Positions 611 through 60,325 of a stretch of 64,000 nt of DNA are shown one piece after another (position 1 is the first letter of the stretch; the number at the start of each line of letters is the position of its first letter). Position numbers and translations under genes: made by a program. The stretch lies in contig OZ244048.1 in the NCBI GenBank assembly GCA_965215265.1, positions 1,632,001 to 1,696,000 of the forward strand, in the 5' to 3' direction. Under the pieces are notes generated by a model. The model worked only from the letters and a program-made list of their open reading frames with translations, ran no database searches and was not told the DNA's origin. This stretch comes from Candidatus Poribacteria bacterium. GTDB lineage: Bacteria > Poribacteria > WGA-4E > WGA-3G.

Positions 611-935
611 ATTTTTGTATATTTCAGTTTTTGTATATTTCAGTTTTTGTATATTTCAGCCCTGTAACGCCTTAGGTTGTGTCAAATACTGTGAAAATCT
701 CGTCTGAGTTCTTCTATGTTTTTAGTGTCTCTGATTGTATATTTCAGCCCCATCAAGGGTTATGTTTTTTCGTATATCTCCGTCCCATAAAGGTTTATGT
801 TTTGTTAAATCCGATGTACATCTCGTGGCAGGTTAGGTATTCTTTATCTCTCCGTCAGGAGAGATAAGATTACCTTATCCTGCCAATCTATAGATACATC
901 TCGTTGGAGCCCTTCGTTGTTTTGAATCAAAAACG
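611..935. repeat. Mosaic cluster of family A arms with a family B palindrome (826-885)
   Basis: TTTTTGTATATTTCAG x3, further arms, GGCAGGTTAGGTATTCTTTATCTCTCC-GTCA-GGAGAGATAAGATTACCTTATCCTGCC. Confidence 0.8.
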
Positions 936-5361: not shown

Positions 5362-5672
5362 TCTTTTGTTTTTTTGTATACAGGAGCCCGTAAAAGGCTG
5401 CTGCAATGTTAAATCCTTTACAAATCTCGTCGGAGATTTTCGATGCTATGATTCATTCTTTCGTCTCTCTCCGTACCATCAACGCCCAGTGGGTTGCGAG
5501 TAAAAGGTAATCCCAGTGGGTTGGCAAGTCTCGCAACTTATGATTTTGCTGGCTCGTGTGTAAATCTCGTTTTTTTGTATACAGGAGCCCGTTCAAAGGC
5601 TGCTGTTATGCTAAAACCTGTGTCGAGTTTGTTCATTGCATCAATTCGTGTCGTGCTCCTGTAGACGAAATA
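5362..5672. repeat. Mosaic family A/B cluster
   Basis: Arms starting ~5370, ~5457, ~5570; CCCAGTGGGTTG x2. Confidence 0.75.
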
Positions 5673-9189: not shown

Positions 9190-9460
9190 TTTTTGTATAT
9201 TTCAGCCCTGTAACGCTTTTTTGTATATTTCCGTACCGTCAACGCTTATGTCGTGGGTACTCGTGTGTAAATCTCGCTCGTGGTCGGCAGGAAAAGATAA
9301 TCTTTGTCTCTCCTTGCAGGAGAGACAAGAAAACCTTACCTGCCGATCAGAGGCTTCTTATGTATTGAATCTAAACCTCGGAAGGCTCTGGCGAGGTTTG
9401 TAAAGTTTTTATCACAACATAGAGCGTTGATGTGCTACAGTATATGAAAAAGCGGTTTTA
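9190..9460. repeat. Family A element interrupted by a family B palindrome (~9284-9347)
   Basis: Arms at 9190 and 9218; GGCAGGAAAAGATAATCTTTGTCTCTCC...GGAGAGACAAGAAAACCTTACCTGCC; right arm to ~9450. Confidence 0.8.
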
Positions 9461-9498: not shown

Positions 9499-10494
9499 CT
9501 ACTTCCACCCCTCTGGCAGATTTTTGTGAATCTCAATATCAGTAAACCCAGTGGGAGGACGTGCGCCAATTGATTTCACCCATGTCGCCATTCTGTTCAA
9601 TCCTTCTTCAATAGAGACTTCAGCGTTAATCCCAAAAACCTTGCGAAATTTATCATGCGAACAATACGCGTGTTTCACCTCTTCTCTAGCCCGAAGGTGG
9701 ATTATCGGCACCTCTTTCCCCATCACTTTCATAACCAGTTCCGCTAACTCGTTAACACTCACCGGTTTATCGGAACCGACGTTAAAAATTTGTCCCGATG
9801 CGGCTGGTATGTCTACCGAGTGTGCAATGTGCGGGGCAACATCGGCAATATGCGTGTAAGCCCGGGTCTGCTCACCATCTCCAAATATGCGTAACGGTTC
9901 ATCACGCAGAATGTTATTCATGAAGATGCCGATAACATTTCGATACTTATCACTGATATTTTGTCCTTCGCCATATACGTTATGGGGACGGAAGATTGTG
10001 TAATCAAGGTCAAAGAGTCGTTTAGAGACAGCGAGTTCTTGTTCTACCGCATATTTGGCAATTCCGTAGGGATCCTCTGGCATAGGTATTAGTTCTTCAT
10101 GCATCGGCAATTGGTTTGTCCCATACACTGCAATGGAAGAGCTGAACACAAAATGCTTGACGTTGTAATTTACCGCTGCGTTTATCAGATTGACACTGCC
10201 GATGAGGTTGTTTTGATAGTTAAATCGCTTGATAAAGTGGCTCAGGCCCTCGGCAGCATAAGCTGCAAGGTGATAGATATAACTGAATTCGTACTGTTCA
10301 CAGAGTTGATTAACCAGCGATACATCCAAGATACTGCCATCGACGAACGTCGCCTCGGGGTTCATGTTCTCATGAAAACCACCGCTCAAGTCGTCAAGCA
10401 CGACAACCTGATGATTCAGATCGCGTAGAAGTTCGTCAACGACGTGTGCACCCATAAAGCCTGCACCGCCGGTAACCAATGAGTTTTTTTTCAT
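9499..10494 (-). CDS. NAD-dependent nucleotide-sugar epimerase/dehydratase
   Basis: TGGAGFMG, YGIAK (YxxxK), HNVYG, GDGEQTR. Confidence 0.92.
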   Translation of the reverse strand: MKKNSLVTGGAGFMGAHVVDELLRDLNHQVVVLDDLSGGFHENMNPEATFVDGSILDVSLVNQLCEQYEFSYIYHLAAYAAEGLSHFIKRFNYQNNLIGSVNLINAAVNYNVKHFVFSSSIAVYGTNQLPMHEELIPMPEDPYGIAKYAVEQELAVSKRLFDLDYTIFRPHNVYGEGQNISDKYRNVIGIFMNNILRDEPLRIFGDGEQTRAYTHIADVAPHIAHSVDIPAASGQIFNVGSDKPVSVNELAELVMKVMGKEVPIIHLRAREEVKHAYCSHDKFRKVFGINAEVSIEEGLNRMATWVKSIGARPPTGFTDIEIHKNLPEGWK

Positions 10495-10551
10495 TTTTCG
10501 TCTCTCTCCGTACCATAAAGGTTTATATTTTGTTAATGCCTGTATAAATCC

Positions 10552-11760: not shown

Positions 11761-11787
11761 ATTCGTATATCTCCGTCCCATCAACGC

Positions 11788-11949
11788 TTTTTCGTCTATT
11801 GGAGCCCTATCAAGGCGTAGGTATTGCTAAATCTTGTGTACATCTCGTCGGAGCCGCTTTATGTTTAGAATCATAGCATAAGAAAGCTCTGACGAGATGT
11901 ACATCGGAGTTAACAAAACATAAACATGATAGGGCACCTGTATACGAAC
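11788..11949. repeat. Family A full palindromic element
   Basis: TTTTCGTCTA...ACATCTCGTCGGAG...GAATC...CTCTGACGAGATGT...TATACGAA. Confidence 0.85.
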
Positions 11950-23859: not shown

Positions 23860-23947
23860 CGATGATTCATAACCTAGAATAGCTCTGGTGAGATTTACAC
23901 GGTAATAAACATAACATCAGGCGTTATAGGGCTGAAGGATACAAAAA
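23860..23947. repeat. Family A right arm abutting the narK start
   Basis: GAGATTTACACGGTAATAAACATAACATCAGGCGTTAT, near-identical to 47589-47647. Confidence 0.8.
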
Positions 23948-32326: not shown

Positions 32327-34858
32327 TTAAGGCGTTACAGCCCGCGCACACCGGAACCCGATGTAGGTGGTCGCGTCCGTAGGGGGCCTCATGAGGCGAT
32401 CGGCGACACGCAGGTTTTGGGCAATGTGGGGCCAACCCCCGCCACGCAACACGCGAGTGGACTTAACACTTGTAAAATCATTTACAATCAGATCCAGATT
32501 CGATATGGTGTTCACGTCACTCAGCGGATTCCGAGACGGCGAACTAAAATAGAAATCCGAATCATACGCATCAAGACACCACTCCCACACGTTCCCGGCC
32601 ATATCATACAGCCCATACCCGTTCGCCGCATAACTCCCTACAGGACGGGTGTCCCCTACATTCTGACCGTAGTTCGCCCGCGCAGAGGAGATTGTATTCC
32701 CCCACGGATACTTTAACCCTGATTTCCCACCCCGCGCTGCTTTCTCCCACTCCGCCTCCGTTGGAAGACGCTTACCTGCCCACGCAGAATATGCTATCGC
32801 CGCATACCACGACACATACCTCACAGGATGGTCCCCCTTACCCACTGGATAGTTATTACCTTCCCAACGTCTTAGGTACTTACCATTGTGGAAGGCATCC
32901 GGAATACGCCCCTTCTGCCACTCGGGATTCGCAAGCACGAAACGTTGATACTGCGCGTTCGTCACTTCATACTGGTCCATGTAGAACGCATCCACATACA
33001 CCGTATGCACAGGCTGCTCGTCAGCATCGGCATCGGCATCTTTGCTGCCCATCTGGAAGGCGCCTGCGGGGATGAGCACCATCCCTTCGGGGGCCGCCGG
33101 TGCGGTAGTGCGGGTGGCTGGCGGCGGGATTGGGGGCGTATTACCGGCCGTTCGCCGTCTCGGAAATGAAGGCGTTACAGCCCTCGCGCACCGGAACCCG
33201 GCGTCGTTGAACGCGTACGTTGGTGTATTCCTGAGGCGATCGGCGACACGCAGGTAGCGAGTATCATCGTCCCAACTCCCGCCACGCAACACGCGATAAT
33301 GCTTAACATGTGTAAATCCATCTACAATCTCATCCAGATTCGCGAGCATACTGCCAGACACACCACTCAGCGGATTACTAGACGGAGACTCTGAATAGAA
33401 AGCCGCATCATACGCATCAAGACACCACTCCCACACGTTGCCGGCCATGTCATACAGCCCATACCCGTTCGCAGCATAACTCCCCACAGCCGTTGTACCG
33501 CCTACATTACTAACGTAGTTCGCATGCGCAGAGGAGATTGTATTCCCCCACGGATACTTTAACCCTGATCGTCCACCGCGTGCCGCTTTCTCCCACTCCG
33601 CCTCCGTTGGAAGACGCTTACCTACCCACGCCGCATACGCCATCGCACCATACCACGATACATACGTCACAGGATGGTTCGCCTTACCCGAAGGATAGTT
33701 ATTACCTTCCCAGTGATCTAGGTAGGAACCATCGTGGAGATCGGCCGAAATACGCCCCTTTTGCCACTGCGGGTTCGCAAGCACAAACCGCTTGTATTCC
33801 AAATTCGTCACCTCGTGCATGTCCATGTAGAACGCGTCCACATGCACCGTCCGCACAAGCTGCTCGTCAGCATCGGCATCGGCATCTTTGCTGCCCATCT
33901 GGAAGTCGCCTGCGGGGATGAGCACCATCCCTTCGGGGGCCGACGGTGCGGTAGTGCGGGTGGCCGGCGGCGGGATTGGGCGCGTATTACCGGCCGTTCG
34001 CCGTTCCGGAAATGAAGGCGTTACAGCCCTCGCACACCGGAACCCGAAGTTGCTGAACGCGGACGTCGGGGGTGAATCCCCGCGGCGAAAAGCGGCACGC
34101 AGGAGCCGTGCAGGACCGTTCCAACTCCCGCCACGCAACACGCGAAGTGACCTAACATGTGTATAGTCATTTACAATCTCATCCAGATTCGATATGGTGT
34201 TCACGTCGCTCAGCGGATTACGAGCCGGCGAATTAAAATAGAAATCCGAATCATAAGCGTCCAGACACCACTCCCACACGTTCCCTGCCATGTCATATAG
34301 CCCATACCCGTTCGCAGCATAACTCCCCACAGCCGTTGTATAGTTTACATTCCTATCGTAGTTCGCATCGTTCGGCGTTATCGTGTCTCCCCGCGGGTAT
34401 TTCTTACCAACTAACCCACCGCGCGCCGCTTTTTCCCACTCCGCCTCCGTCGGTAGACGCTTACCTGTCCATGCCGCATACGCCATCGCACCATACCACG
34501 ACACATTTACCACCGGATGGTTCGCCTTACCTGCTGGATAGTTATTACCATTCCAATGTTTTAGGTAATTACCATTGTGGAGCGTGCGGGGGATGCGCGT
34601 CTTTTGCCATTGGGGGTTCGCCAGCACAAACCGCTTGTATTCCAGATTCGTCACCTCGTGCGTGTCCATGTAGAACGCGTCCACATGCACCGTGTGCACA
34701 GGCTGCTCGTTATTACCGGCATCGGCAGCCTCACTGCCCATCCGGAATGTGCCACCGGGGATGAGCACCATACCTTCGGGGGCCGCCGGTGCGGTAGTGC
34801 GGGTGGCCGGCGGCGGGATTGGGCGCGTATTACCGGCCGTTCGCCGTTTCGGAAATGA
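32327..34858 (-). repeat. Three tandem ~840-bp linker+FGE modules
   Basis: Units 32327-33166, 33167-34012, 34013-34858; internal units end GCTGTAACGCCT-TCA where the terminal unit has GCTGTAACGCCT-TAA. Confidence 0.9.
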
Positions 34859-35746
34859 ATACGCGTAAGGCTTCTGGGTTGTCTGACCTATTTTATTCAG
34901 TTTCCGCTGGTTAGATGAAAGGAACGTTGTCTCATTGAAAAGTTTTTGTGTTTTCTGTTGCGTCAGTGCAAAGACCTCGCGCCACGACAGGAATCTATCA
35001 GAATCTCTATCTGCCTCCGCAGTGAAACTATCGAGCAGTGACACAGTGAAATACCCACCGATATCGTCATTTCCCCAGGCGTATTCACCAGCCGACGCAG
35101 CCGTGATGTCCAGAAAACCGCGATGTTCTAAAAACAGATTTTTGGTGTACCGCCGCTCTCTTGACTGAACTCTGGCGTAACGGCGTGCAATCGTTGGTGG
35201 TGCTTGAACCCGATTACTACACGTGTCCGTAATCAGCAGCTTTAACCGGCCTGCTTTGTCCTTCAACACGTTACGAATTCCATCCCGGGAGACAAAATCG
35301 TTCGTGACTTCCGGGTCAAAGTTGAGAATGTGGGTGCCAAAAGCATCCATACTTCCGTGTCCACTATAGTAGATGAGAACTGTATCATCATCGTTCGGAT
35401 GCAACTCTCGGAGCCATTGACCCACCTGTTTCGCTTTGATAATCCCCTGCTTTTCTTCCTGAATGCCGCGTGAATCGGTGTTGGACAGCGTGAACTCCTT
35501 GACCATTCCGTCGATTTCGGTTTCCGATTTCATCAGAGTCACGTGCACCTCACAGTCTTCGGACACCTGCCTCAGCAAGGTTTGCATCTTACTCTCATTT
35601 TTCTCGACGCTCGTCCGGATATCTGCATCGTTTCCCAGGATTACCAGCAGCGCGTGCACCTTTTGTGCATCGGCTGAGGGGGCGGCAACAAGAAAGGAAA
35701 CCAAGACGAAGAACCCTATAGCGTGGACAACTTGTTTTGCAATCAT
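32327..35746 (-). CDS. Secreted caspase-like C14 domain + three tandem FGE-sulfatase (CLec-fold) domains; putative DGR target
   Basis: YYSGHG/LITDTC; 3x (FxMGS, RLPTEAEWEKAARGG, DMAGNVWEWC, RVLRGGxW...GFRCAR); no catalytic FGE cysteine pair. Confidence 0.88.
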   Translation of the reverse strand: MIAKQVVHAIGFFVLVSFLVAAPSADAQKVHALLVILGNDADIRTSVEKNESKMQTLLRQVSEDCEVHVTLMKSETEIDGMVKEFTLSNTDSRGIQEEKQGIIKAKQVGQWLRELHPNDDDTVLIYYSGHGSMDAFGTHILNFDPEVTNDFVSRDGIRNVLKDKAGRLKLLITDTCSNRVQAPPTIARRYARVQSRERRYTKNLFLEHRGFLDITAASAGEYAWGNDDIGGYFTVSLLDSFTAEADRDSDRFLSWREVFALTQQKTQKLFNETTFLSSNQRKLNKIGQTTQKPYAYSFPKRRTAGNTRPIPPPATRTTAPAAPEGMVLIPGGTFRMGSEAADAGNNEQPVHTVHVDAFYMDTHEVTNLEYKRFVLANPQWQKTRIPRTLHNGNYLKHWNGNNYPAGKANHPVVNVSWYGAMAYAAWTGKRLPTEAEWEKAARGGLVGKKYPRGDTITPNDANYDRNVNYTTAVGSYAANGYGLYDMAGNVWEWCLDAYDSDFYFNSPARNPLSDVNTISNLDEIVNDYTHVRSLRVLRGGSWNGPARLLRAAFRRGDSPPTSAFSNFGFRCARAVTPSFPERRTAGNTRPIPPPATRTTAPSAPEGMVLIPAGDFQMGSKDADADADEQLVRTVHVDAFYMDMHEVTNLEYKRFVLANPQWQKGRISADLHDGSYLDHWEGNNYPSGKANHPVTYVSWYGAMAYAAWVGKRLPTEAEWEKAARGGRSGLKYPWGNTISSAHANYVSNVGGTTAVGSYAANGYGLYDMAGNVWEWCLDAYDAAFYSESPSSNPLSGVSGSMLANLDEIVDGFTHVKHYRVLRGGSWDDDTRYLRVADRLRNTPTYAFNDAGFRCARAVTPSFPRRRTAGNTPPIPPPATRTTAPAAPEGMVLIPAGAFQMGSKDADADADEQPVHTVYVDAFYMDQYEVTNAQYQRFVLANPEWQKGRIPDAFHNGKYLRRWEGNNYPVGKGDHPVRYVSWYAAIAYSAWAGKRLPTEAEWEKAARGGKSGLKYPWGNTISSARANYGQNVGDTRPVGSYAANGYGLYDMAGNVWEWCLDAYDSDFYFSSPSRNPLSDVNTISNLDLIVNDFTSVKSTRVLRGGGWPHIAQNLRVADRLMRPPTDATTYIGFRCARAVTP

Positions 35747-44313: not shown

Positions 44314-45510
44314 TTAGCCTGCAATTATATCCCGAATCTGGTTTGTGTCAGCATCCTGACTCAAACGGGTGTTAACAATCAGTGTCAGTGCGCGTTGAAA
44401 TCTCACTTGTGGCTCACCCCATGCGTTCAAAAGGAGTTGGCTTTCAAGTTTTTCCGGCTGCGCCATTGCTTCTAAAAGCCGATGGATAACTGAAAGATAA
44501 AAGAGTAGGTGATGTGCATCTACCCGCGCTGCGATGTCATCGGAGTCAGCGGATGTGTATTGTCCTCCGTTTGCCGCATGTCTGATAACGGATTCAACAT
44601 ATCTTTTTACCAGTTTCCTATTTAACAGTGAGACAAAATTCGATCTTTCCATGAAAGCACCAATACTATTGAACATTTGAATCAAACGTCTCTCCTGCCA
44701 ATCCCAACCGATGCTTGCAAAATCGATAAAAACGGGTTTTCCACTGTTAATCACGATATTACGTGCGTTATAGTCAAGACTCCCTAATGTCGTAGGTGCA
44801 TTGAGTAAACGGTCAGAGAGTTTCTTCCAAGCAGTTTCGAGACGTTCAATTTGTGCTGTGGACATTGAAATGCCTCTCGCTTGTGTGAGATAGCCGACAG
44901 TTTTTTTTCCTTGTTCAAGTAAACGCCTCAACGTTTCGTGGCTGTTAAAACGGAATACATAAGGTTTTAGCTGCCTTGTCTGTTCTGCAAAACAGTTCTC
45001 AATTCTGCCTAATTCTTGGATTGCAGCGTGTAGGATTCGGTGGCTGGCTAGCTCTGAAATTGTCGTCGATTTTTGTCTCCTTTTTTTTGTATCAAGCGTC
45101 GGTTCGGTGTAGCCACCCCCTTTGTTGTCGATAGAGAGTGTGCTGAGATTTCCAGGACGTTGGGCGATAGCATCAAGCGTCAGTTCTCCGCACCCTTCCA
45201 ATAACAGTGTTTGAAAGGATTCAGATTTCCAAACAACTTTGGGAACATTACAGCCACAGCGGTGTAACATGGATAATACGGTGGATTCAATCTGAAAAGG
45301 CGTATAACTTCCACCTTTGCTAACGTGAAAAGTGGTATAATGTTGTTTAATGACGTAGTATTCGGTACCAATTCTCAAACGCCAGACGTTCTGTCTTTTC
45401 CGCGTTCCGTGCCGAATGGTTTCAATCTGCAGTGCATCCGGAGATGTTTTCAAGTACACAGCAATCTCTTCAAGCACCTGCTCCAGATTGTTTGTATTGG
45501 ACTCAACCAT
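44314..45510 (-). CDS. Aminoglycoside phosphotransferase/kinase-like protein
   Basis: YVIKQ, LDYNARN catalytic loop, FIDFA. Confidence 0.7.
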   Translation of the reverse strand: MVESNTNNLEQVLEEIAVYLKTSPDALQIETIRHGTRKRQNVWRLRIGTEYYVIKQHYTTFHVSKGGSYTPFQIESTVLSMLHRCGCNVPKVVWKSESFQTLLLEGCGELTLDAIAQRPGNLSTLSIDNKGGGYTEPTLDTKKRRQKSTTISELASHRILHAAIQELGRIENCFAEQTRQLKPYVFRFNSHETLRRLLEQGKKTVGYLTQARGISMSTAQIERLETAWKKLSDRLLNAPTTLGSLDYNARNIVINSGKPVFIDFASIGWDWQERRLIQMFNSIGAFMERSNFVSLLNRKLVKRYVESVIRHAANGGQYTSADSDDIAARVDAHHLLFYLSVIHRLLEAMAQPEKLESQLLLNAWGEPQVRFQRALTLIVNTRLSQDADTNQIRDIIAG

Positions 45511-45693
45511 GTTTTTCTTTATTCTCTCGCTAGCGGCTTTCGCTATAACTCAGTAAAGTCTTTATCTTTCCTATAGTAGACGTTGAACGTCCCAGTTAGG
45601 TTGAAGTTCAAAAATTGGGCGCGGTTGGTGCATGCGACGTTAAGCCGATGTACTTGTGTCACTCAGATTTTAATCAGCATCAATAGAAAAAAC

Positions 45694-45722
45694 TTGCAAT
45701 TTGAAGATGACTGTGGTAAAAT
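45694..45722 (+). promoter_or_regulatory. rpsB promoter (extended -10)
   Basis: TTGCAA-17 nt-TAAAAT with TG at the extended -10 position. Confidence 0.65.
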
Positions 45723-45946
45723 ATTTATATCCATTCTAAAGTGGAACAAGAAGTATAAAGTGTACGCGCATGTGACGCGACATAAAGACGACACACCTCC
45801 CGATTTGCACGGCGGGTTCTCTCATTCAGTTCTTCTGTCTGTTTCAGCATCTTAACGTCTTTACTTTAAGGTGATTTTGCAAGATAGGCTTGAAAGCTGC
45901 ACCTGCGACTCGTTAAAGGTTTTTGATGTAACTTCAGAAACAAGAA

Positions 45947-46105
45947 CTTTGTATATAGGAGCACAACAATGATGATGTGATGTTTAACCTCGCACAAATC
46001 TCGTCGGAGCCTTTCGATGTATTGAATCTAAACATCGGAACCCTCCGACGAGATTCGAAAAGGATTTATCAAAACATCAGGCATTGATGTGCTAAAATAT
46101 ACGAA
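45947..46105. repeat. Family A full palindromic element within the rpsB leader
   Basis: TTTGTATA...AAATCTCGTCGGAG...GAATC...CTCCGACGAGATT...TATACGAA. Confidence 0.85.
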
Positions 46106-46317
46106 TGATTCTAAATTTGAGAGTCCGATGCAGATGTGAAAGAGGTGGACGTAAAAACCCGGTAGGCGCTGCTAAGGAAGAGAGTAGCAGAATAGGTAAG
46201 TTTACGAAACCTTTCAGGTGGGGAAGTGCTTCCCGCAAGCGGGGATGAATCCCCATCGTGAACTACCTTTTACCTGCCACCCACTGGGCAGTGCTTCTAT
46301 AAGTGCAGGAGGTTATT

Positions 46318-47211
46318 TTGGCTGTTACAATGAAAGATCTCCTTGAATGTGGAGTTCATTTCGGACACCAAACCCGTCGCTGGAATCCGAAGATGGCAGA
46401 GTACATCTTCGCGGAGCGAAACGGGATTTATATCATTGATTTGCAAAAGACATTACACATGCTGGAAACGGCCGTGGCGTTCGTACAAGACATCGCCTCA
46501 AAAGGCGGGGGAATCCTATTTGTTGGCACAAAACGGCAGTCGCAAGAGGCAGTGAAAGAAGAAGCAGAGCGATGCAGTATGTATTACGTGAATCACCGCT
46601 GGTTAGGTGGCATGCTCACCAATTTCCAAACGATTCGACGGAGCGTCAGCCGCCTCAAGAAGTTGGATGACGACGACACGAATGGGCTATTTGATCAGAT
46701 GCCGAAAAAAGAGGTGATGCGGCTGCGGCGGGAGCGCGGCAAGTTGGACAATAACCTCTGCGGGATAAAGGAGATGCACCAGCTGCCGCAGGTTATTTTT
46801 GTGACAGATACCCGCAAAGAGCATACCGCTATCGCTGAGGCCAATAAACTCGGCATTCCTATTATTGCTATTGTTGATACAAACTGCGATCCGGATCCCG
46901 TCCATCTACCTGTCCCCGGGAACGACGATGCCATCCGCTCAATTCGGCTTATCTGCAACGTTTTAGCGGATGCAGTGATTGAAGGACGTGGGGAAGCCTT
47001 AGAGGGCGAGGAAAGCATAGAAACGCCTGCGGATTCCGAGGTAGCCCCCCAGGTTGATCTTGTGCTAGAAACCGAACGTCATGAAGAGCAAGGGGCTGCG
47101 ATGCTGGATGAAACCGAACTATCCGCGGAACCAGAAGCAATCGGCGATGGCGACACACGTTCTAGTCGCACGCCACGCCCGCGGAGAAGAAGCAGGTCAA
47201 CTAAACGGTAA
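46318..47211 (+). CDS. rpsB: 30S ribosomal protein S2
   Basis: [33 protein letters not shown]; TTG start after AGGAGG. Confidence 0.98.
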
Positions 47212-47212
47212 C

Positions 47213-47710
47213 TATTTTTATATATCTCAGTACCATCATCGCTTCTGCTTTGCTGGCTCGTGTGTAAATCTCGTCGGAGTTTTTCTATGCTATGATTCTA
47301 TACATCAGAACCCTCCTAGTGAGTGGCAGGTAATTTGTATGGTGCAGCCCCTAAACGGCTGATGTTGTGTTAATCACTGTGTAAATCTCGTCGGAGATTA
47401 TCTAGGTGATGATTCAATACATAAACGGTTCCCAGTGGGTTGGCAAGTTCGGTATTCTTGTCTCTCCTTGTAGGAGAGACAAAGATTACCTTATCTTGCC
47501 AGCTATAGATTTTGATAACCTTTGCATAAAACTCGTCAGAGCCTGCTTAGGTATCGTCTTTAAAGTCAAAACCTAAGGAATCTCCGAAGAGATTTACACG
47601 GTAATAAACATAACATCAGGCGTTATCGGGCTGAAATATACAAAAAAACGAGATTTACACCCGAACTATCAAAACATAGACGTTGATGGTACGGAGATAT
47701 ACGAAAAAAC
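47213..47710. repeat. Large family A/B mosaic between rpsB and tsf
   Basis: At least five arms plus a family B palindrome at ~47441-47500. Confidence 0.85.
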
Positions 47711-47727
47711 AAGATTGGAGTGGATTT

Positions 47728-48321
47728 ATGGCAATTACAGCAAAATTGGTGAGTGAGCTCCGTTCCCGCACAGGTGCAGGAATTATGGACTGCAAAAAGG
47801 CGTTAACAGAAACGAACGGGAACCTGGAAGAAGCGATTCAAAAATTACGTGAACAAGGTTTGAAAGCGTCCGAACTCAAAGGCGGACGTGCGACAAAAGA
47901 GGGATTAATCGTTTCCTATATCCATCCCGGAAATCGTGTTGGGGCCTTAGTTGAAATGAATTGTGAAACCGATTTCGTGGCGAGAACGGAGCAGTTCCAA
48001 AACTTGGCGAAAGAGATTGCGATGCAAATCGCCGCTGCCAAACCTAAATACGTTGACGTAGAGAATATACCGGATGATGAATTGGATGCAGAAAAAGCGA
48101 TTTTGAAAACACAAGCGGTGAAAGAGGGAAAACCCGAACATATCGCCGAGCGCATTGTAGCAGGACGACTCTCCAAATTCTATTCGGAGACATGCCTGCT
48201 GCATCAGCCCTACATTCGCGATACAGATAAAACCATCCAAGAACTGGTGAAGGATGCGATAGCACAACTCGGTGAGAATATCGTCGTTAAACGTTTTATG
48301 CTCTATGTTCTTGGGCAGTAA
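47728..48321 (+). CDS. tsf: Elongation factor Ts (short form, 197 aa)
   Basis: LRSRTGAGIMDCKKAL, NCETDFVA. Confidence 0.97.
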   Translation: MAITAKLVSELRSRTGAGIMDCKKALTETNGNLEEAIQKLREQGLKASELKGGRATKEGLIVSYIHPGNRVGALVEMNCETDFVARTEQFQNLAKEIAMQIAAAKPKYVDVENIPDDELDAEKAILKTQAVKEGKPEHIAERIVAGRLSKFYSETCLLHQPYIRDTDKTIQELVKDAIAQLGENIVVKRFMLYVLGQ

Positions 48322-48323
48322 AG

Positions 48324-48682
48324 ATTTTCATCTATTTCAGCACATCAACGCTTTTTCGTATACTGGAGCCCAACAACACCTGACGCATTGTTTTTTTTGT
48401 ATATCTCCGTACCATCAACGCTTATGTAATAATAACTCGTGTGTAAGGATTTAATATAGCAGCCGCCTTTATAGGGCTCCTGTATACGAAAGAACGAGAT
48501 TTGTAAGGGGGTTAACATTGCAGCAGGCTTTATTGGGCTCAATTAAGTAACTACGCTGATCAGTATGCAAAGCAGAGTTAACATTGCAGCAGGCTTTATT
48601 GGGCTCCTGTAGACGAAAGAACGAGATTTGTGCAAGGATATTCATTATAGCAGCATTTGTAGTGCTGCAGTATACGAAAAAA
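48324..48682. repeat. Family A arm array between tsf and frr
   Basis: Truncated left arms followed by head-to-tail ACGAGATTT...TATACGAAAGA units. Confidence 0.85.
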
Positions 48683-48693
48683 GGGGAACTCCG

Positions 48694-49281
48694 ATGCAAC
48701 AGGTTCTTCAAGATGCCGAATCCAGGATGAAGAAAACAGTGGAGTCAACAGCGACAAAACTCTCGCACGTACAGACAGGACGTGCTACCTCTGCTCTTCT
48801 GGACCAGGTCACGGTCAATTACTATGGAAGTAAAAGCCCCTTGAATCAGGTAGGTACAGTCACCACACCGGAGCCACGTCTACTTGTTATTCAACCGTGG
48901 GACAAAACGTTAATCAAAGAAGTTGAGAAAGCGATTGCGCTTTCTGATTTGGGCTTCTCAACCAGCAACGATGGAAACGTCGTCCGAATCTTAGTGCCTG
49001 AGTTGACAACGGAACGCCGCACTGAACTCACCAAGGTCGTGCGTAAGTTAGCTGAAGAAGGGCGCGTCGCCATCCGGAACATTCGCCGAGATGCAAACGA
49101 AGCTATACGCAAGCTGGAAGGCGCAAACTCAAGCGGAAGCGGCAGAAAAAGTAGGGGCCGCAGCGGCGATAGGAAGAGTGGGAGATCCGATGCTGACCCT
49201 GTGCAACAGCTTACTGATAATTACATAGAGCAGATTAACCAACTTACCACATCTAAGGAATCAGAGTTGTTGGAAAATTAG
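48694..49281 (+). CDS. frr: Ribosome recycling factor
   Basis: TGRA, IQPWD, PELTTERR, RVAIRNIRRDAN. Confidence 0.95.
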   Translation: MQQVLQDAESRMKKTVESTATKLSHVQTGRATSALLDQVTVNYYGSKSPLNQVGTVTTPEPRLLVIQPWDKTLIKEVEKAIALSDLGFSTSNDGNVVRILVPELTTERRTELTKVVRKLAEEGRVAIRNIRRDANEAIRKLEGANSSGSGRKSRGRSGDRKSGRSDADPVQQLTDNYIEQINQLTTSKESELLEN

Positions 49282-49291
49282 AGGAACGCAA

Positions 49292-50224
49292 ATGGCCGAG
49301 CAGCATATCTACATCCCCGACAAAAAATTTTGGCGGCGAACCTTGAGTGTTATTATGCTGGTCCCATTAGTTCTCCTAATTATATATTTCGGGGATTGGC
49401 TTTATCTGCTGCTTGTGTCCGTGGTGGTATTAATGATGCAGATCGAGTACTGTCGACTGGCGCGGCATTTCAGTGGACATTTTAATGCCCGTTTAGAAGC
49501 CGCGCCTTACATGAATCCGGTAGTCCCTGGACTTCTAACGCTTGCTTTCTGTGCTTTAGCATATTTTGCTCCCGTTTTGCCACAAACAGCAAATGGAAAG
49601 GGCACTGCCGAACTCGTTCTATTTGGATGCTTTACCTTTGTACTTATCTATGTTTTCGCTGAAAGCATCTTCCGTGGAAAAGTTGAGGGAGAGTTGATAA
49701 CCGTTACCTTAAAGTTTACAGGGATTATTACCATCGGCTGGGCTTTAGGCTACCACCTCATCCTGTTACGAAATATCCATATAGAAGGGGCACCGGGCAC
49801 TAACACCGAGGTAGGTAGGAATCTCATATTTTTGCTCGCTGGCACCATTTGGTGCAGCGACACGGGGGCATACCTCATCGGGAGAATTGTCGGGAAGCAT
49901 AAATTGGGCACGCCGATTAGTCCGAGGAAAACGGTTGAAGGTACGATTGCGGGGTTAGTTTTGGGTACCTTGGTAGGTTTTGGACTTGGCGTGACCCTCC
50001 TGCGTGACACGCTCTCTTTGTTCAATGCTGCATTTATAGGCTTGCTATTGAGTGCTTTGGGACAACTCGGTGACCTGAGTGAATCGCTGATGAAACGGAC
50101 TGCAGGTGTTAAAGACTCGGGCGATGTCATCCCTGGACACGGTGGATTCCTTGACAGATGCGACAGCTTAATCTTTAGTGCCCCTGTTCTTTATTATTAT
50201 ATAGAATTTTTTCGTATATTATAG
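49292..50224 (+). CDS. cdsA: Phosphatidate cytidylyltransferase
   Basis: DTGAY, ISPRKTVEG, KDSGDVIPGHGGFLDRCDS. Confidence 0.95.
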   Translation: MAEQHIYIPDKKFWRRTLSVIMLVPLVLLIIYFGDWLYLLLVSVVVLMMQIEYCRLARHFSGHFNARLEAAPYMNPVVPGLLTLAFCALAYFAPVLPQTANGKGTAELVLFGCFTFVLIYVFAESIFRGKVEGELITVTLKFTGIITIGWALGYHLILLRNIHIEGAPGTNTEVGRNLIFLLAGTIWCSDTGAYLIGRIVGKHKLGTPISPRKTVEGTIAGLVLGTLVGFGLGVTLLRDTLSLFNAAFIGLLLSALGQLGDLSESLMKRTAGVKDSGDVIPGHGGFLDRCDSLIFSAPVLYYYIEFFRIL

Positions 50225-50336
50225 CACGTCACAAGTTGCTGTAATCAACACCTTAGCACAAATCTCGTTCTTTCGTCTACAGGAGCCCGTTAAAGGCTGC
50301 CCACTGGGCGTTGACGGTACGGAGATATACAAAAAG
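50205..50336. repeat. Family A arms at the cdsA-dxr junction
   Basis: Overlaps the cdsA stop; ends GGTACGGAGATATACAAAAAGAT-ATG. Confidence 0.8.
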
Positions 50337-50338
50337 AT

Positions 50339-51526
50339 ATGAAGCACATCGCGATTCTCGGTAGCACGGGTTCAATTGGGAAGAACGCGCTCAGCGTTAT
50401 TGAAATGCACTCAGAGGAATTTAACGTGGTGGGGCTCGCTGCAAACCGGGACGTTGATACACTTGAACAGCAGATTCGCACCCATCGTCCCAAGTTGGTT
50501 GCTCTGAATCAAGAAACCGCTGCGGTACATTTGCGCCAACGTATCCGCGACCTTAACGGTGTAGAAGTACTCGCCGGCACTGATGGGCTCAGGGCAGTCG
50601 CGACGATGAACGAAGCAGAGCAGGTATTAGAAGGAATAGGCGGAAGCACAGGTTTACTCCCTACATTGGCTGCTATAAACGCTGGAAAAGACATCGCCTT
50701 TGTTAACAAAGAGGTAATGGTAATGGGAGGGAAACTTGTCATAGACGCAGTCCAGACAAACGGAGTTAACTTAATTCCGATAGATGGGGAAATGAGTGCA
50801 ATTTTCCAGTGCTTAGAAGGACAACGGAATCGCCAAACCGACATCCATCGCCTCCTGATTACCGCATCCGGTGGCCCGTTTCGCGAAATGCCCAAAGAAG
50901 CACTCTATAGTGTAACACCACAACAGGCACTTAAACATCCTAATTGGGATATGGGGGCGAAAATTACAATCGACTCTGCGACTATGATGAACAAGGGACT
51001 TGAGGTTATTGAAGCCAAATGGTTGTTTGATGTCCCCCTCTCAAAAATCGATATTGTTATTCACCGGGAGAGTATTATCCATTCTATGGTTGAATGGACA
51101 GACGGCTCAACGCTCGCGCAGCTGGGGCCCACGGATATGCGCGTCATGATTCAATATGCTTTGAGTTATCCGCACAGACTCTCTACGCCTGTTCCGCGTT
51201 TAGAGTTGTGTGAGCTGCAAGCATTACACTTTGAACCGGTGGATAGTGAAAAATTTCCGTGCATTTCACTCGCCTATACTGCGGCGGAAGTCGGGGGGAC
51301 GCTTCCAGTTGTACTCAGCAGCGCGGACGAGGTAGTCGTCGACGCTTTTCTGGAAAATCGTATCGGATTTATGGATATTCCAACTATCCTACGAACCGTT
51401 ATGGATAAACATGTTGTGATTACACATCCAGACCTCGCTGATATCCTTGCTGTTGATGAGTGGGCAAAATCGGCAACACGTTTTTGTATATCTCAGCATC
51501 TTTCGTCTACAGGAGCCCAACAATGA
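50339..51526 (+). CDS. dxr: 1-deoxy-D-xylulose 5-phosphate reductoisomerase
   Basis: LGSTGSIG, TASGGPF, HPNWDMG, DSATMMNKGLE. Confidence 0.95.
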   Translation: MKHIAILGSTGSIGKNALSVIEMHSEEFNVVGLAANRDVDTLEQQIRTHRPKLVALNQETAAVHLRQRIRDLNGVEVLAGTDGLRAVATMNEAEQVLEGIGGSTGLLPTLAAINAGKDIAFVNKEVMVMGGKLVIDAVQTNGVNLIPIDGEMSAIFQCLEGQRNRQTDIHRLLITASGGPFREMPKEALYSVTPQQALKHPNWDMGAKITIDSATMMNKGLEVIEAKWLFDVPLSKIDIVIHRESIIHSMVEWTDGSTLAQLGPTDMRVMIQYALSYPHRLSTPVPRLELCELQALHFEPVDSEKFPCISLAYTAAEVGGTLPVVLSSADEVVVDAFLENRIGFMDIPTILRTVMDKHVVITHPDLADILAVDEWAKSATRFCISQHLSSTGAQQ

Positions 51527-51681
51527 TTGATGTAATGTTTAGTCCTTTTTTCGTCTACAGGAGCCCAATACGGATTCATGTGGCAGGATAGGTATTCTTT
51601 GTCTCATGGCAAGAAAACCGAACCTGCGAACACACAAGTTATCAATACATAAATGTTGATGGTACGGAGATATACAAGAAA
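51479..51681. repeat. Family A/B mosaic at the dxr-rseP junction
   Basis: Encodes the dxr C-terminus; ends GGTACGGAGATATACAAGAAA-ATG. Confidence 0.8.
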
Positions 51682-53490
51682 ATGGAATTTCTACAGTCAT
51701 TTTTTTCAATCCTTCCAAATATTAAAACAGTGCTACTTGCAATTATCCCGCTCGGTTTCCTTATTTTTATACATGAACTCGGCCATTTTTATGCAGCGAA
51801 ACGGGCTGGAATTAAAGTCAACACCTTCTCCCTCGGTTTCGGTCCAAAACTAATCGGGTTTCAGCGCGGGGTAGGTTTTACAACACTCATAGACGGATTA
51901 CGCTTATCCCGTGCGGCTAAAGCTGCCGAGGAGGCAGCAGGATCCGGGGAATCTACGAATCCGGGTGCGGATGTCTCTTCTCTATCTACCACCGACACCG
52001 AGTACCGGCTCTCTTTGTTGCCGTTTGGCGGGTATGTTCAAATGGAAGGTGAAAATCCGAAGGAGCAGACTGGTGCTGTAGGCGAATTTGGGAGTGCTTC
52101 GCTTGGCAACCGGGCTTTTGTTGTTGCTGCGGGCCCCGCCGTGAACTTGCTGTTCGGGGTTTTAGCATTTTGGCTGGTTTTCGCTATTGGCTTGAATCAG
52201 CGTTCGGTTACTTTTATTGAAGGATTAACAGGTAAGCACTTAGAGGGAAAAAAAGAGGGACCTCAATTAGGAGCGGTTGCTCCTGAAGGGCCCGCTGCGC
52301 ACGGCGGATTGGAGCCCGGCGATATCATTCTGTCCGTAAACGACACACAAATTGAAAACTGGGCTGCATTTCACATTAAAATTTACACAAGCCCCGGACG
52401 AGCGTTAGAAATCGAAGTAGAACGCCAAGGCACTCGTCAAACCTTCACTGTCGTACCTAACATTGTACCAAGTGCAAGGGGAGATACCGGCGAACTGCAA
52501 GTCATTTCCAAAAGCGATATAATGGTAACGGATGTTGCCGCAGGGAGTTTAGCAGAACAGGCAGGTATCCAAGTAGGGGATAGAGTTGAGACGATTAACG
52601 GCGAAAAAATTTATAACGTTCCAGAATTTGGTTCGGGAATTTGGGCAGCCGAAGCGATTTGGCTGTCTCAGCACTACCAGTCCCTTTACCGCTCAATTCA
52701 GCAGAATCCTAACGAGTTTCAACTCGGTATTCGCCGAGGCGAGACTGCAAAAGTTTTGAAAATGCCGGTCACTTGGGAACTCACGGCGGTGGTTCAACCC
52801 GATGCGGAAGTTGTTGGCTTGCAAAATGGGGACACGCTTCTCACCCTCAATGGAAATGCCGTGGATAGTGAGACGCTTTCAGCAGGCTTGAAAGCAGCGG
52901 CAAGCAAACCGATTGAATTGCGCATACGGCGAGGCAATTCAGAAAAAACGGTAACGCTATCTCCGAACGTAAAAGCGAGAGCTGAGAGTGCACAAGCAAC
53001 AAGCAGGCTATATGGATTCGGATGGACGACAACGCTCAGCGGAATCTCATTTGGGGAACCGCCGCGGGTCGTGCCAACCTATACTGTATTTACAGCGTTC
53101 GGAAAGGGACTTGAAACGTCATGGCTGACCGTTGCCTCCATCGGAAGAACCCTAAAGCAGCTAATCAATAGAGAAGTTTCGCCGAGGTATCTCACCGGAC
53201 CTATCGGCATAGCCAACGCGACAAGCCGGATGTTTAATTTCGGGTTCACGATTGCTCTGTTTTTTATTGGCTTTATTAGCATCAACCTCGCCATTGTGAA
53301 TTTGTTGCCAATTCCGATCGCCGACGGAGGGCATTTGCTATTTTTTGCGGTTGAGAAAATCCGAGGACGGCCGATAAGCCTCGAAAAACAGGCAATCGTC
53401 CAGCATGTAAGCATTATTCTCTTAATTGCCCTATTCCTGTATATCACTTGGTTTGATGGGCTCTCCTTAATTGATGACATCCGTAACTAA
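51682..53490 (+). CDS. rseP: RIP metalloprotease RseP with multiple PDZ domains
   Basis: HELGH, GGYV, AGPAVN, NLLPIPIADGG. Confidence 0.93.
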   Translation: MEFLQSFFSILPNIKTVLLAIIPLGFLIFIHELGHFYAAKRAGIKVNTFSLGFGPKLIGFQRGVGFTTLIDGLRLSRAAKAAEEAAGSGESTNPGADVSSLSTTDTEYRLSLLPFGGYVQMEGENPKEQTGAVGEFGSASLGNRAFVVAAGPAVNLLFGVLAFWLVFAIGLNQRSVTFIEGLTGKHLEGKKEGPQLGAVAPEGPAAHGGLEPGDIILSVNDTQIENWAAFHIKIYTSPGRALEIEVERQGTRQTFTVVPNIVPSARGDTGELQVISKSDIMVTDVAAGSLAEQAGIQVGDRVETINGEKIYNVPEFGSGIWAAEAIWLSQHYQSLYRSIQQNPNEFQLGIRRGETAKVLKMPVTWELTAVVQPDAEVVGLQNGDTLLTLNGNAVDSETLSAGLKAAASKPIELRIRRGNSEKTVTLSPNVKARAESAQATSRLYGFGWTTTLSGISFGEPPRVVPTYTVFTAFGKGLETSWLTVASIGRTLKQLINREVSPRYLTGPIGIANATSRMFNFGFTIALFFIGFISINLAIVNLLPIPIADGGHLLFFAVEKIRGRPISLEKQAIVQHVSIILLIALFLYITWFDGLSLIDDIRN

Positions 53491-53815
53491 TTTTCGTCTA
53501 CTGCAGCACAACAAAGGCTGCTGCAATGCTAAAATTTGTACAAATCTCGTTTTTTTCGTCTACAGGAGCCCGTTAAAGGCTGCTGTAATGTTAACCTTAG
53601 CACAAATCTCGTCGCCCGCCCACCCAAATCCTTTGATGTTATGATTCAATACATCGAAGGGCTCAGACGAGATTTACACAGTGATTAACACAACATCAGC
53701 CATTTAGGGGCTGCACCATACGAAAGAATTCGTATATCTCCGTACCATCAACGTCTATGTTTTGATAGTTCGTGTGTAAATCTCGTCGGAGCCTCTTGAT
53801 GTTTAGATTCAAAAA
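53490..53815. repeat. Family A array at the rseP-udg junction
   Basis: Two tandem left arms, centre, right arm, then a further left arm containing the candidate udg start. Confidence 0.85.
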
Positions 53816-54488
53816 AGAATACTTACAACTTCTTGCGACTGTGAGGGAATACGTGGAAGAACAACTTGAACTCGGTTTCATGGAGCTACAGGAGCCTAAA
53901 CAGGAATCTCCTTACGCTAACTTCGACCTGATCCAGTTAGATGCAGATGCTCAAAACTGCACCCGATGCGTTTTGCACGAAAGCCGAAACAGCGTCGTTT
54001 TCGGATTTGGAAATCCTAATGCTTCGCTGATGTTTGTCGGAGAAGCACCTGGGGCGGATGAAGACCGGCAAGGCGAACCTTTTGTCGGACGCGCCGGGCA
54101 ACTGCTGACCCGAATTATTGAGGCGATGAAGTTTACACGTGACAATGTTTACATCGCTAACGTGCTAAAATGCCGTCCACCGGGAAACAGAAATCCAGGC
54201 CCGGATGAGATTGAAATGTGTCGTCCATATTTGGAACGGCAGATAGAATTGATTCACCCCAAAGTGATTGTCGCACTCGGGAGTTTTGCAGCGAAGTTGT
54301 TAATTAATACGACTACAGGTATTTCAGCACTTCGCGGACAGTTTCATACGTACTCGAAAGCCGGAAAGCAGGAGAATGCACCACGCATCATGCCTACCTA
54401 TCATCCTGCATATCTGCTCCGGAATCCTAGTGCAAAACGCGACGTGTGGGACGATATGAAAAAGGTCTTAGATTTCTTAGAAAAATGA
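53799..54488 (+). CDS. Uracil-DNA glycosylase family 4 ([4Fe-4S])
   Basis: [29 protein letters not shown]; candidate start ATG lies in the centre of a repeat element. Confidence 0.92.
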
Positions 54489-58239: not shown

Positions 58240-60213
58240 TTAAGGAGTAACAGCCCTCGCGCACCGGAACCCGACACCGCCGTACGTGAACGTCGGGGTA
58301 AGCCTGCTGCGACCGGCGACACGCAGTTTTCGTGTAGGACTGTTCCAACTACCGCCACGCAACACGCGAGAGGAAGAGATCATAGCGGTCATATAGCGAT
58401 TTACAATCTCAGCCACATTCACGAGCGTACTGCCAGACACACCACTCAGCGGATTCCGAGACGGAGACTCAGAATAGAAATCCGCATCATACGCATCAAG
58501 ACACCACTCGTAAACGTTGCCTGCCATATCATACAGCCCATACCCGTTCGCAGCATAACTCCCCACAGCCGTTGTATTGCCTACATTCCTACCGTGGTTG
58601 GCGTTATTAGGCGTTATCGTGTCCCCCCACGGGTATTTCTTACCAACTAACCCACCGCGTGCCGCTTTCTCCCACTCCGCCTCCGTTGGCAGACGCTTAC
58701 CTGCCCACACGGAATATGCCATCGCACCATACCACGACACATACCTCACGGGATGGTTCGCCTTACCCACTGGATAGTTATTACCTTCCCAAAGCATTAG
58801 GTACTTACCATTGTGGAAGGCATCCGGAATCTGCGTCTTCTGCCACTCGGGGTTCGCCAGCAGAAAACTTTTATACTCGGCGTTCGTCACTTCGTGCATA
58901 TCCATATAGAACGCGTCCACATACACCGTCCGCACAGGCTGCTCGTCACCATCGGCCTCGGCATCGTTGCTGCCCATCTGGAACTCGCCCGCGGGGATGA
59001 GTGCCATCCCTGCAGGCACCGATGTTGCACTCACACAACGAAACCCGGTGAAGCTTGCCGTGAACGTCGGCTCCCTCTTGAACCTATCGGCGACGCGCTG
59101 GTAACGCACATCAGCACGCCAATTACCACCCCGCAACACCCGCATTGACTTCACATTTACGCCAATGTAGTCCGATACAATCTCAGCCACATTCGCGAGC
59201 ATACTACCAGACACACCACACAGCGGATTCCGAGACGGAGACTTTTTATAAAATTTCTTATCCCACGCATCAAGACACCACTCGTGAACGTTCCCGGCCA
59301 TGTCGAACAGCCCATACCCGTTCGCAGCATAACTCCCCACAGAAGTCGTATCGTCTACATTCCTATCGTAGTTCGCATCGTTCGGCGTTATCATGTCTCC
59401 CCACGGATACTTCAGACCTGCCTCCCCACCGCGTGCCGCTTTCTCCCATTCCGCCTCCGTTGGCAGACGCTTCCCTGCCCACGCAGCATAAGCCATCGCC
59501 GCATGCCACGACACATACCTCACAGGATGGTCCCCCTTACCCACTGGATAGTTATTACCGTCCCAACGGTTTAGGTAAGAACCAAAGTGGAAGGCATCCG
59601 AAATACGCCCCTTCTGCCACTCGGGATTCGCCAGCACAAAAGTTTGATACTCAGCGTTCGTCACTTCGTGCGTATCCATATAGAACGCGTCCACATGCAC
59701 CGTATGCACAGGCTGCTCGTTATCCCGCGCATCAGCATCGTTGCTGCCCATCTGGAAGGTGCCGCCGGGGATGAGCACCATCCCTGCAGGCGCAGACGCG
59801 GGAGCCGCAGGCGCAGACGCGGGAGCCGCAGGCGCAGACGCTGCACCGTTAAACCCCGCCGCTACTAACACCACGTCTCCTATATCCACTACACTATTCC
59901 CGTTCATATCTGCCGAACTGTTACCGCGGGTTCCCAGGCGCGCCGCTACCAATGCCAAATCCACTATATCCACACGGCCATCACCATTCACATCCGCATC
60001 ACCTTTGACAGCCGAAAGCATGCCGACATCCGCAGGCAGGCTTACCCCTTGCGCACACACAGCGCCAACACTCCCTAAACTCAAAACTATACACGCCAAT
60101 ATTGCTAACATCACTGACACGCTGTTATTAGTCATTACAGTCCTCCAAACCTTTGACACTTTTTTAGCGGACATTACAGTCCTCCAAACCTTTGACACTT
60201 TTTTATTACACAT
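58240..60213 (-). CDS. Secreted dockerin-like + two FGE-sulfatase (CLec-fold) domains; putative DGR target
   Basis: Signal peptide; DVNGDGRVDIVD and DMNGNSVVDIGD loops; ASAPAAP linker repeats; 2 FGE domains, terminal one ending GFRCARAVTP. Confidence 0.88.
   Translation of the reverse strand: MCNKKVSKVWRTVMSAKKVSKVWRTVMTNNSVSVMLAILACIVLSLGSVGAVCAQGVSLPADVGMLSAVKGDADVNGDGRVDIVDLALVAARLGTRGNSSADMNGNSVVDIGDVVLVAAGFNGAASAPAAPASAPAAPASAPAGMVLIPGGTFQMGSNDADARDNEQPVHTVHVDAFYMDTHEVTNAEYQTFVLANPEWQKGRISDAFHFGSYLNRWDGNNYPVGKGDHPVRYVSWHAAMAYAAWAGKRLPTEAEWEKAARGGEAGLKYPWGDMITPNDANYDRNVDDTTSVGSYAANGYGLFDMAGNVHEWCLDAWDKKFYKKSPSRNPLCGVSGSMLANVAEIVSDYIGVNVKSMRVLRGGNWRADVRYQRVADRFKREPTFTASFTGFRCVSATSVPAGMALIPAGEFQMGSNDAEADGDEQPVRTVYVDAFYMDMHEVTNAEYKSFLLANPEWQKTQIPDAFHNGKYLMLWEGNNYPVGKANHPVRYVSWYGAMAYSVWAGKRLPTEAEWEKAARGGLVGKKYPWGDTITPNNANHGRNVGNTTAVGSYAANGYGLYDMAGNVYEWCLDAYDADFYSESPSRNPLSGVSGSTLVNVAEIVNRYMTAMISSSRVLRGGSWNSPTRKLRVAGRSRLTPTFTYGGVGFRCARAVTP
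60133..60213 (-). repeat. 39-bp tandem duplication copying RBS+ATG
   Basis: AAAAAAGTGTCAAAGGTTTGGAGGACTGTAATG x2; in-frame ATGs at 60213, 60174 and 60135. Confidence 0.85.
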
Positions 60214-60325
60214 TATATACCTCCAAATGCCGCGAAACACTCGCGGCTAAAAATACGAGGGGTTGGAGGCGAGACCGCCGCGTCAAACGCAGACGGCACA
60301 CACACCCTTACACCTCTCTCACGCT

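Follow-up and report, generated by a model that had tools for sequence, protein, structure and literature searches.

The 64,000-nucleotide stretch of Candidatus Poribacteria DNA analyzed here (the window; positions 1,632,001 to 1,696,000 of the single 4.83-Mb contig of a genome we call G000) carries copies of a dispersed repeat whose ends lie directly against the start and stop codons of host genes, among them cdsA, dxr, and rseP. The gene names that an earlier note had given from the sequence of the window were borne out. The last codons of cdsA (49292..50224, + strand), FFRIL, and its stop fall within a full 61-nt arm of the repeat (50207..50267, +), whose T-run points outward, toward the cdsA end; the ortholog in a same-genus relative (G001) ends in LTQAFSH. 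A second, truncated arm follows in tandem (50268..50300, +), and then an inverted, truncated arm (50308..50335, −) of a variant that carries GGAG (50321-50324 on the + strand) and turns its A-run toward the dxr ATG. This arm ends 7 nt before dxr (50339..51526, +), with a GGAG-to-ATG distance of 14 nt. The dxr C-terminus, FCISQHLSSTGAQQ, and its stop are again repeat-derived, and repeat DNA makes up both the end of dxr and the whole spacer to rseP (51481..51681, unstranded): T-run arms, both short and long, along with a hairpin cassette (∼51580-51640) and an inverted arm whose GGAG (51666-51669) stands 12 nt before the rseP ATG (arm gap, 5 nt). The T-run of the next arm starts at 53491, flush with the stop of rseP (51682..53490, +).

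Both the dxr and the rseP ATG are conserved. For dxr, all 29 relative loci have MK.. aligned with this start, one of them with GTG; by eye, most relatives show no clear Shine-Dalgarno (SD) sequence upstream of it. The cdsA-dxr spacer is 2 nt long in G001, and dxr overlaps cdsA by 4 nt in 3 of 16 other same-family loci read. In G000, the last seven codons and stop of the G001 cdsA are gone, and two pre-ATG bases remain. The rseP start of G001 is preceded by 62 nt of native spacer, which includes a 7-nt SD match. The junction at the dxr start is identical in contigs of three other studies; thus, such junctions are not an assembly artifact. In other Poribacteria (loci L010, L013, and L006), the corresponding dxr spacers are filled with unrelated heptamer-type repeats; these spacers have thus been colonized repeatedly.

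The arm has a fixed length (61 nt) and runs from a T-run through YGTMTA and a variable interior to ATCTCG, often followed by a palindromic core (319 seed copies); the element's own end is ∼5 A. As a whole, the repeat is an intergenic mosaic of ∼60 to 90 nt. A head profile identified 833 arm heads in G000, versus 3 in the reversed genome; they fall in 526 clusters, with 563 heads facing outward. Most clusters are one-sided, and 90 of the 526 are bounded on each side by a T-run head. Short pieces of an arm end, frequently from a different variant, have been added to 16 start-facing and 5 stop-facing ends (P = 0.11). The heads show only a weak replichore bias (438 versus 395), the 61-nt arm folded no better than shuffles in four start regions (z from −1.1 to +0.9), and Rfam gave 0 matches in the window. 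The GGAG-bearing 15-mer (≤1 mismatch) has 286 matches in G000, 0 in G001, and 1 each in 6 of 30 relatives; a search of the 30 relatives revealed no family made up of the exact arm. Exact matches to a core 14-mer number 209 in G000, 61 in G004 (a member of the Poribacteria from another genus), 5 in G001, and ≤1 in each other relative. Sister arms in G001 and G004 have a similar geometry and a different sequence.

We called genes with a hexamer model (3,814 in G000; G001, at ∼81% protein identity to G000, was covered over 2.8 of its 4.0 Mb) and kept 1,835 G000/G001 gene pairs. A start common to both genomes was regarded as verified (1,177 pairs, 912 of which agree with the called start); starts in the remaining 658 pairs, and in genes for which G001 has no ortholog, are treated as called but not verified. 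An arm end is termed flush when its last conserved base lies 2 to 8 nt before a start, short appended end fragments included.

Flush arm ends precede 60 called starts, of which 33 are ortholog-verified; the gap is exactly 5 nt in 17 of these 33. Among verified starts 3 to 62 nt from an outward arm end, 32 of 94 lie at 3 to 7 nt (P = 2e-12 versus uniform). The earlier note had proposed such a genome-wide distance check, and its outcome is a sharp 5-nt spike, not random spacing. Since the element's own end is ∼5 A, a gap of 5 leaves no native base. Of 327 start-facing ends, 41 have an ATG at gap 5, compared with 5 of 236 stop-facing ends; the lack of an ATG excess at the latter rules out ATG as a plain sequence target. 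A second group of ends lies 13 to 20 nt from the start (28 verified, with only 7 at 9 to 12 nt in between), and here the pre-ATG DNA keeps near-control identity to G001 to about −13.

The setting of these ends is not random either. A same-strand upstream neighbor is present for 59 of 60 flush genes versus 383 of 500 random genes, and divergent spacers are underused (33 clusters in 406 spacers, versus 416 in 2,274 tandem spacers). In tandem spacers with repeats of a single orientation, the orientation with the A-run facing the downstream start is preferred (202 versus 97); head ends lie ≤10 nt from a start in 53 of 202 cases and core ends in 1 of 97, and the corresponding figures for ≤10 nt from a stop are 38 of 97 and 5 of 202. 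In G004, where we took 20 stretches in order from the 61 core matches, four sister ends are flush with homolog-matched starts, at gaps of 3, 5, 5, and 5 nt. The G001 sister family, with 22 clusters and one end at gap 8, is too sparse to reveal a register.

The same association holds at stops. Thirty-six called genes stop inside an arm; 26 of these have a G001 ortholog. In 27 gene comparisons with G001, C-terminal tails differ by −6 to +13 residues, while 74% of 1,753 controls show no difference. Another 35 arm ends lie 2 to 8 nt past a stop, and ortholog stops fall 2 to 9 nt from an arm end in 24 of 64 cases (P = 1e-6). The gene simply takes whichever in-frame stop the arm offers first, and the resulting tails are varied; C-terminal junctions occur at many offsets, several of them, by eye, at a native TT. 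In the window, the C-termini and stops of dxr, cdsA, and a sulfotransferase (FRLQEHDTN plus stop, encoded by an arm at 5641..5672, −) are repeat-encoded, as previously proposed, and all differ from those of G001. The association with gene boundaries is strong at both ends of genes, and because no SD argument applies at stops, this symmetry favors a boundary effect.

Relative to G001, native spacer DNA has often been lost where the repeat resides. We examined 43 spacers of conserved adjacency with heads at both ends, 32 of which correspond to a G001 spacer of ≥30 nt. Twenty of these 32 keep less than half the G001 length as nonrepeat DNA, versus 66 of 457 controls (P = 4e-9); the figures come from an exact-end count, as a blast-based repeat mask overextends. 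Flanks of the 90 two-ended elements equaled shuffled flanks in a search for target-site duplications. Paralogous empty sites were found for 6 of 436 merged clusters, the cleanest showing an 88-nt insert with 2 nt lost and no duplication.

On balance, we lean toward a selfish, nonautonomous repeat that eats into the adjoining DNA from its A/T-run end until selection to preserve coding sequence halts the loss. Deletions adjacent to mobile-element ends are a familiar phenomenon. A unit of ∼88 nt would first insert cleanly between genes of an operon. Native DNA would then be removed by deletions that keep the A/T-run end as their anchor, probably with the aid of A-run microhomology. The ATG would be a hard stop for deletion, so that ends gather at the element's own length (R + ∼5 A), and the stop side would be soft, with ends entering the C-terminus by a few codons and the arm's first in-frame stop being used. 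The A-rich end is predicted to keep genes translatable, while the GGAG variant may offer a weak, long-spaced SD, with selection sorting that variant toward starts; udg, discussed below, would be the single true recruitment of an SD and ATG from the core. The repeat is likely not a domesticated module; spacers were likely eroded up to gene boundaries and filtered for translatability.

The earlier note held that the arm's GGAG provides the SD sequence of the downstream gene, and the 16S tail of G000 carries an ordinary anti-SD. In favor of this claim, flush starts have an excess of the GGAG variant: 36 of 60 carry it, versus 85 of 246 start-facing ends at ≥13 nt (P = 0.0004) and 13 of 35 stop-flush ends (P = 0.036). 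With verified starts, the figures are 23 of 33 flush versus 31 of 88 farther away (P = 0.0009), i.e., the variant is ∼2-fold commoner when flush. Its spacing fits the claim less well: the arm GGAG lies 10 to 15 nt from the ATG (mode, 12 nt; 18 of 36), whereas 305 of 448 native GGAGs lie at 5 to 9 nt. A spacing of 10 to 14 nt does occur in G000, because 89 of the 448 native GGAGs are found there. For Escherichia coli, an SD spacing optimum of 5 to 9 nt and increased translation with A-rich spacers have been described (PMC7264876).

Arms without GGAG pile up as well: they show the same 5-nt spike (13 of 24), and their verified pile-up is 10 of 44 (P = 0.003). SD-like changes occur in 3 of 24 flush GGAG-less arms, narK among them, versus 2 of 337 others (P = 0.002), although the narK-type variant also occurs at a distance of 283 nt from a start. 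Use of the GGAG variant does not follow the SD status of the ortholog (14 of 23 versus 5 of 10; P = 0.71, small numbers), and an SD is about equally common in orthologs of flush genes (19 of 33) and in controls (720 of 1,066). An SD of ≤−4 kcal/mol at canonical distance is present in 15 of 29 G001 orthologs versus 5 of 29 G000 genes. A scan of 45500-54200 limited to the σ70-like promoter consensus stayed below shuffle level and gave no gene-facing site inside an arm, toward dxr and rseP included. Judging from sequence comparison, GGAG likely helps at flush starts and is neither required nor tuned.

Several observations weigh against erosion. Native upstream sequence survives, displaced upstream with little loss, in 6 of 33 flush cases; flush placement is thus possible without extensive erosion. 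No deletion intermediates or polymorphism were seen, and contigs of four other runs match the junctions where covered. The spike falls sharply at exactly 5 nt and is seen again in G004 (3 of 4 flush ends), which targeting would predict equally. Spacer loss was gauged against one relative, at ∼81% protein identity, whose own spacers may also have changed. At one start (G000 4063348, − strand), G001 also has a sister arm ahead of that ATG, so that each genome carries its own version of the repeat there; this suggests either an old site homogenized to each genome's family or repeated insertion. Finally, the one transposase family scanned for in G000, Y1 (PF01797), was not found there, and multicopy units (≥500 bp) in G000 are not consistently bounded by the repeat.

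The main rival to erosion is a mechanism that reads start or stop codon context, inserts the element right at the gene boundary, and fixes the A-run register before the ATG. We consider it unlikely, even though it would readily accommodate the sharp register in G000 and in a different genus with a differing arm sequence, the displaced leaders, and the missing target-site duplication. It sits poorly with the stop-facing ends, which show no ATG excess; with the 503 of 563 outer ends that are not flush with a called start; with the many offsets of C-terminal junctions and the frequent disappearance of whole spacers; and with the failure of the Y1 and repeat-bounded-unit searches of G000 to reveal an enzyme. 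A bolder and slightly more doubtful version would have one Poribacteria repeat family, spanning three genera with differing arms but the same 59- to 61-nt geometry and core, placed in the 5-nt register by a translation-aware mechanism and itself rebuilding the ribosome-binding region it destroys: a damage-limiting parasite that colonizes essential operons. By comparison, a one-step origin as repair patches, in which resected spacer breaks are filled from another copy via A/T-run microhomology and coding-sparing patches survive, seems very improbable. It would explain the absence of target-site duplications, the loss of native DNA, the mosaic arms, the other-variant end fragments at 21 ends, and the several C-terminal junctions at native TT, but a single random step gives no one-position spike, and the clean 88-nt insertion lost only 2 nt.

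The earlier note named a domesticated translation-signal module as one of two options, the other being targeting of gene boundaries. Spelled out, the first would make the repeat a host-owned, portable initiation unit (REP2-like) that sets or coordinates expression of downstream genes. The GGAG enrichment, the SD-like changes at three starts (narK among them), the udg start taken from the core, the preferred A-run orientation, and an AAGGA 11 nt before flush ATGs in the G004 arm all point that way. Nevertheless, the idea overreaches and we regard it as improbable: canonical-distance SDs fall from G001 to G000, GGAG spacing was never tightened to 5 to 9 nt, GGAG-less arms have the same spike, the variant is unlinked to ortholog SD status, no more than 60 of the 563 outer ends lie flush with a called start, no σ70-like promoter faces dxr or rseP from an arm, the exact arm forms no family in 30 relatives, and 1 of 100 cores with a GGAG-7-start arrangement has ortholog support. 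Least credible of all is chance crowding, with an abundant repeat in short spacers and GGAG incidental; the spacer median is near 70 nt and there are 526 clusters to fill it, yet the clustering at starts and stops, the sorting of GGAG at verified starts, and the recurrence of the register in G004 leave this explanation a negligible share.

Gene stops and ribosome-binding sites supplied by repeats have precedents, and the Poribacteria repeat resembles several of these in part while departing from each in its defining features. Neisseria REP2 and Borrelia IR-A/IR-B are dispersed intergenic repeats directly upstream of unrelated genes, with a ribosome-binding sequence; REP2 supplies promoter, ribosome-binding site, and ATG, has 23 to 26 copies, and marks coregulated genes (PMC3184786). 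The Poribacteria repeat is likewise dispersed, intergenic, and upstream of unrelated genes. It differs in that the host ATG is kept in the 33 verified flush cases (udg is the sole ortholog-supported exception), no σ70-like promoter faces a gene from an arm in the part of the window scanned (45500-54200), GGAG is long-spaced, most ends are off starts, and there are >800 arms. The same source describes mycobacterial MIRUs as 40- to 100-bp units in operons whose ends overlap adjacent genes and whose filled sites have 4-nt direct repeats (PMC3184786); our repeat shares the operon setting and the overlap, but not the direct repeats.

GTAG/CGTC REPs are 20- to 40-bp stem-loops that hug 3′ ends and stand at variable distances from the genes downstream; REP termini supply stop codons, and CGTC families lack a linked transposase (PMC3733652). 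Like REP/BIME elements so described, the Poribacteria repeat is abundant, heterogeneous, and often dimeric, and its ends give stops (36 inside arms). Unlike them, its 61-nt arm has no significant fold and piles up at starts too; it does not show the tetranucleotide tag, 8- to 9-bp stem, and 4- to 5-nt loop (CGTC is present in 55 of 319 full arms), and no RAYT/Y1 gene flanked by the repeat was found in G000, while in G001 a sister module lies inside IS200/IS605 rather than flanking it. Pneumococcal BOX, a modular composite repeat, provides the stop codon of 36 genes, core genes among them (PMC3049150). Modularity and encoded stops are shared; the modules are unrelated in sequence, and the sections consulted mention neither a flush-ATG register nor variant sorting (PMC3049150). 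The target-site duplication expected of a miniature inverted-repeat transposable element is absent from the Poribacteria repeat. Our literature search, which left most subscription papers outside its coverage, turned up no account of the present family, nor of repeats held in a fixed register flush with starts and sorted by variant.

What is unusual here is the scale and the measurability: ∼60 translation starts and 36 C-termini, including those of dxr, rseP, and cdsA, differ from a congener via one repeat family, and the repeat's own variants serve as an internal control, with the SD-like variant sorted toward starts. The family provides a natural test of how little the SD counts when the spacer is A-rich, as well as of the way selfish repeats can saturate essential operons. 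It also causes misannotation of starts and stops, as for udg and GT4.

Elsewhere in the window, arms adjoin starts in varied ways. As earlier proposed, an arm with GGAG stands before each of the dxr, rseP, epimerase, and GT4 ATGs. An arm filling the GT4-epimerase spacer (10495..10551, +) has its GGAG 11 nt before the epimerase ATG at 10494 (− strand gene; gap, 4 nt; start verified in G001). Two arms precede the − strand GT4 gene (11761..11850, +), with ATG 11760 at the junction (gap, 3 nt; GGAG at 10 nt); here the start shared with G001 is 11754, not 11760. The arm before narK (23867..23947, −) does have a variant that creates AAGGA (23935-23939, +), 8 nt before ATG 23948; this start is supported by orthologs, with 15 of 17 relatives' matches beginning at residue 1 and an ATG present in three relative loci read. 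Of three further − strand starts said to be abutted by arms, two are: a GGAG-less arm with three tandem 16-nt arm ends (611..700, +; ends at 613-660) lies 5 nt from verified ATG 610, and another GGAG-less arm (9190..9275, +) lies 4 nt from the verified start of a MurJ/MatE-like gene at 9189. The third, also GGAG-less (5369..5430, +), lies 13 nt from ATG 5361. On ortholog comparison, the dxr, rseP, epimerase, 610, and 9189 starts all hold, GT4 11760 being the exception.

The start of udg (53799..54488, +), a family-4 uracil-DNA glycosylase, had been placed inside an arm. It does appear to be repeat-supplied, but by the core rather than the arm end: an arm plus half core (53728..53811, +) carries a core GGAG (53788-53791) 7 nt before ATG 53799. 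G001 and 12 named Poribacteria loci align in the N-terminal region; in relatives whose N-terminus is shown, udg begins with an M that lies a few codons upstream of the conserved stretch, and this M is missing in G000, where the repeat core replaces the relatives' N-terminus and ATG 53799 is in frame. Translation of udg probably begins at this core ATG. The core is not a general start donor: of 100 cores with the GGAG-7-start arrangement, 59 have open reading frames of <5 codons and 4 have ≥60 codons, and udg is the only ortholog-supported gene start.

Related and unrelated repeats turned up alongside this family. The hairpin cassette between dxr and rseP (window 51580-51640) belongs to a second repeat family, nested in many repeat clusters and also free-standing, whose copies give >100 matches each in an intergenic self-BLAST. 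In G001, a ∼1.9-kb IS200/IS605 element (L142:4873-6411) contains a sister module between tnpA (Y1) and tnpB, and at least four further near-full copies of the element occur in the portion read. We rejected IS200/IS605 as the mobilizer: the module is internal, the element has no G000 match, and the other G001 copies lie elsewhere, so we read the module as a passenger. A G001 type ISP restriction-modification gene (L138:10947-15932) includes three in-frame tandem 69-nt (23-residue) copies of the sister module; its G000 homologs do not align across that stretch. G000 also has a near-identical repeat of ∼177 copies, unrelated to the arm family and CRISPR-like in its exactness, and the window encodes proteins with ∼843-bp internal repeats at 32327-35746 and 58240-60240.

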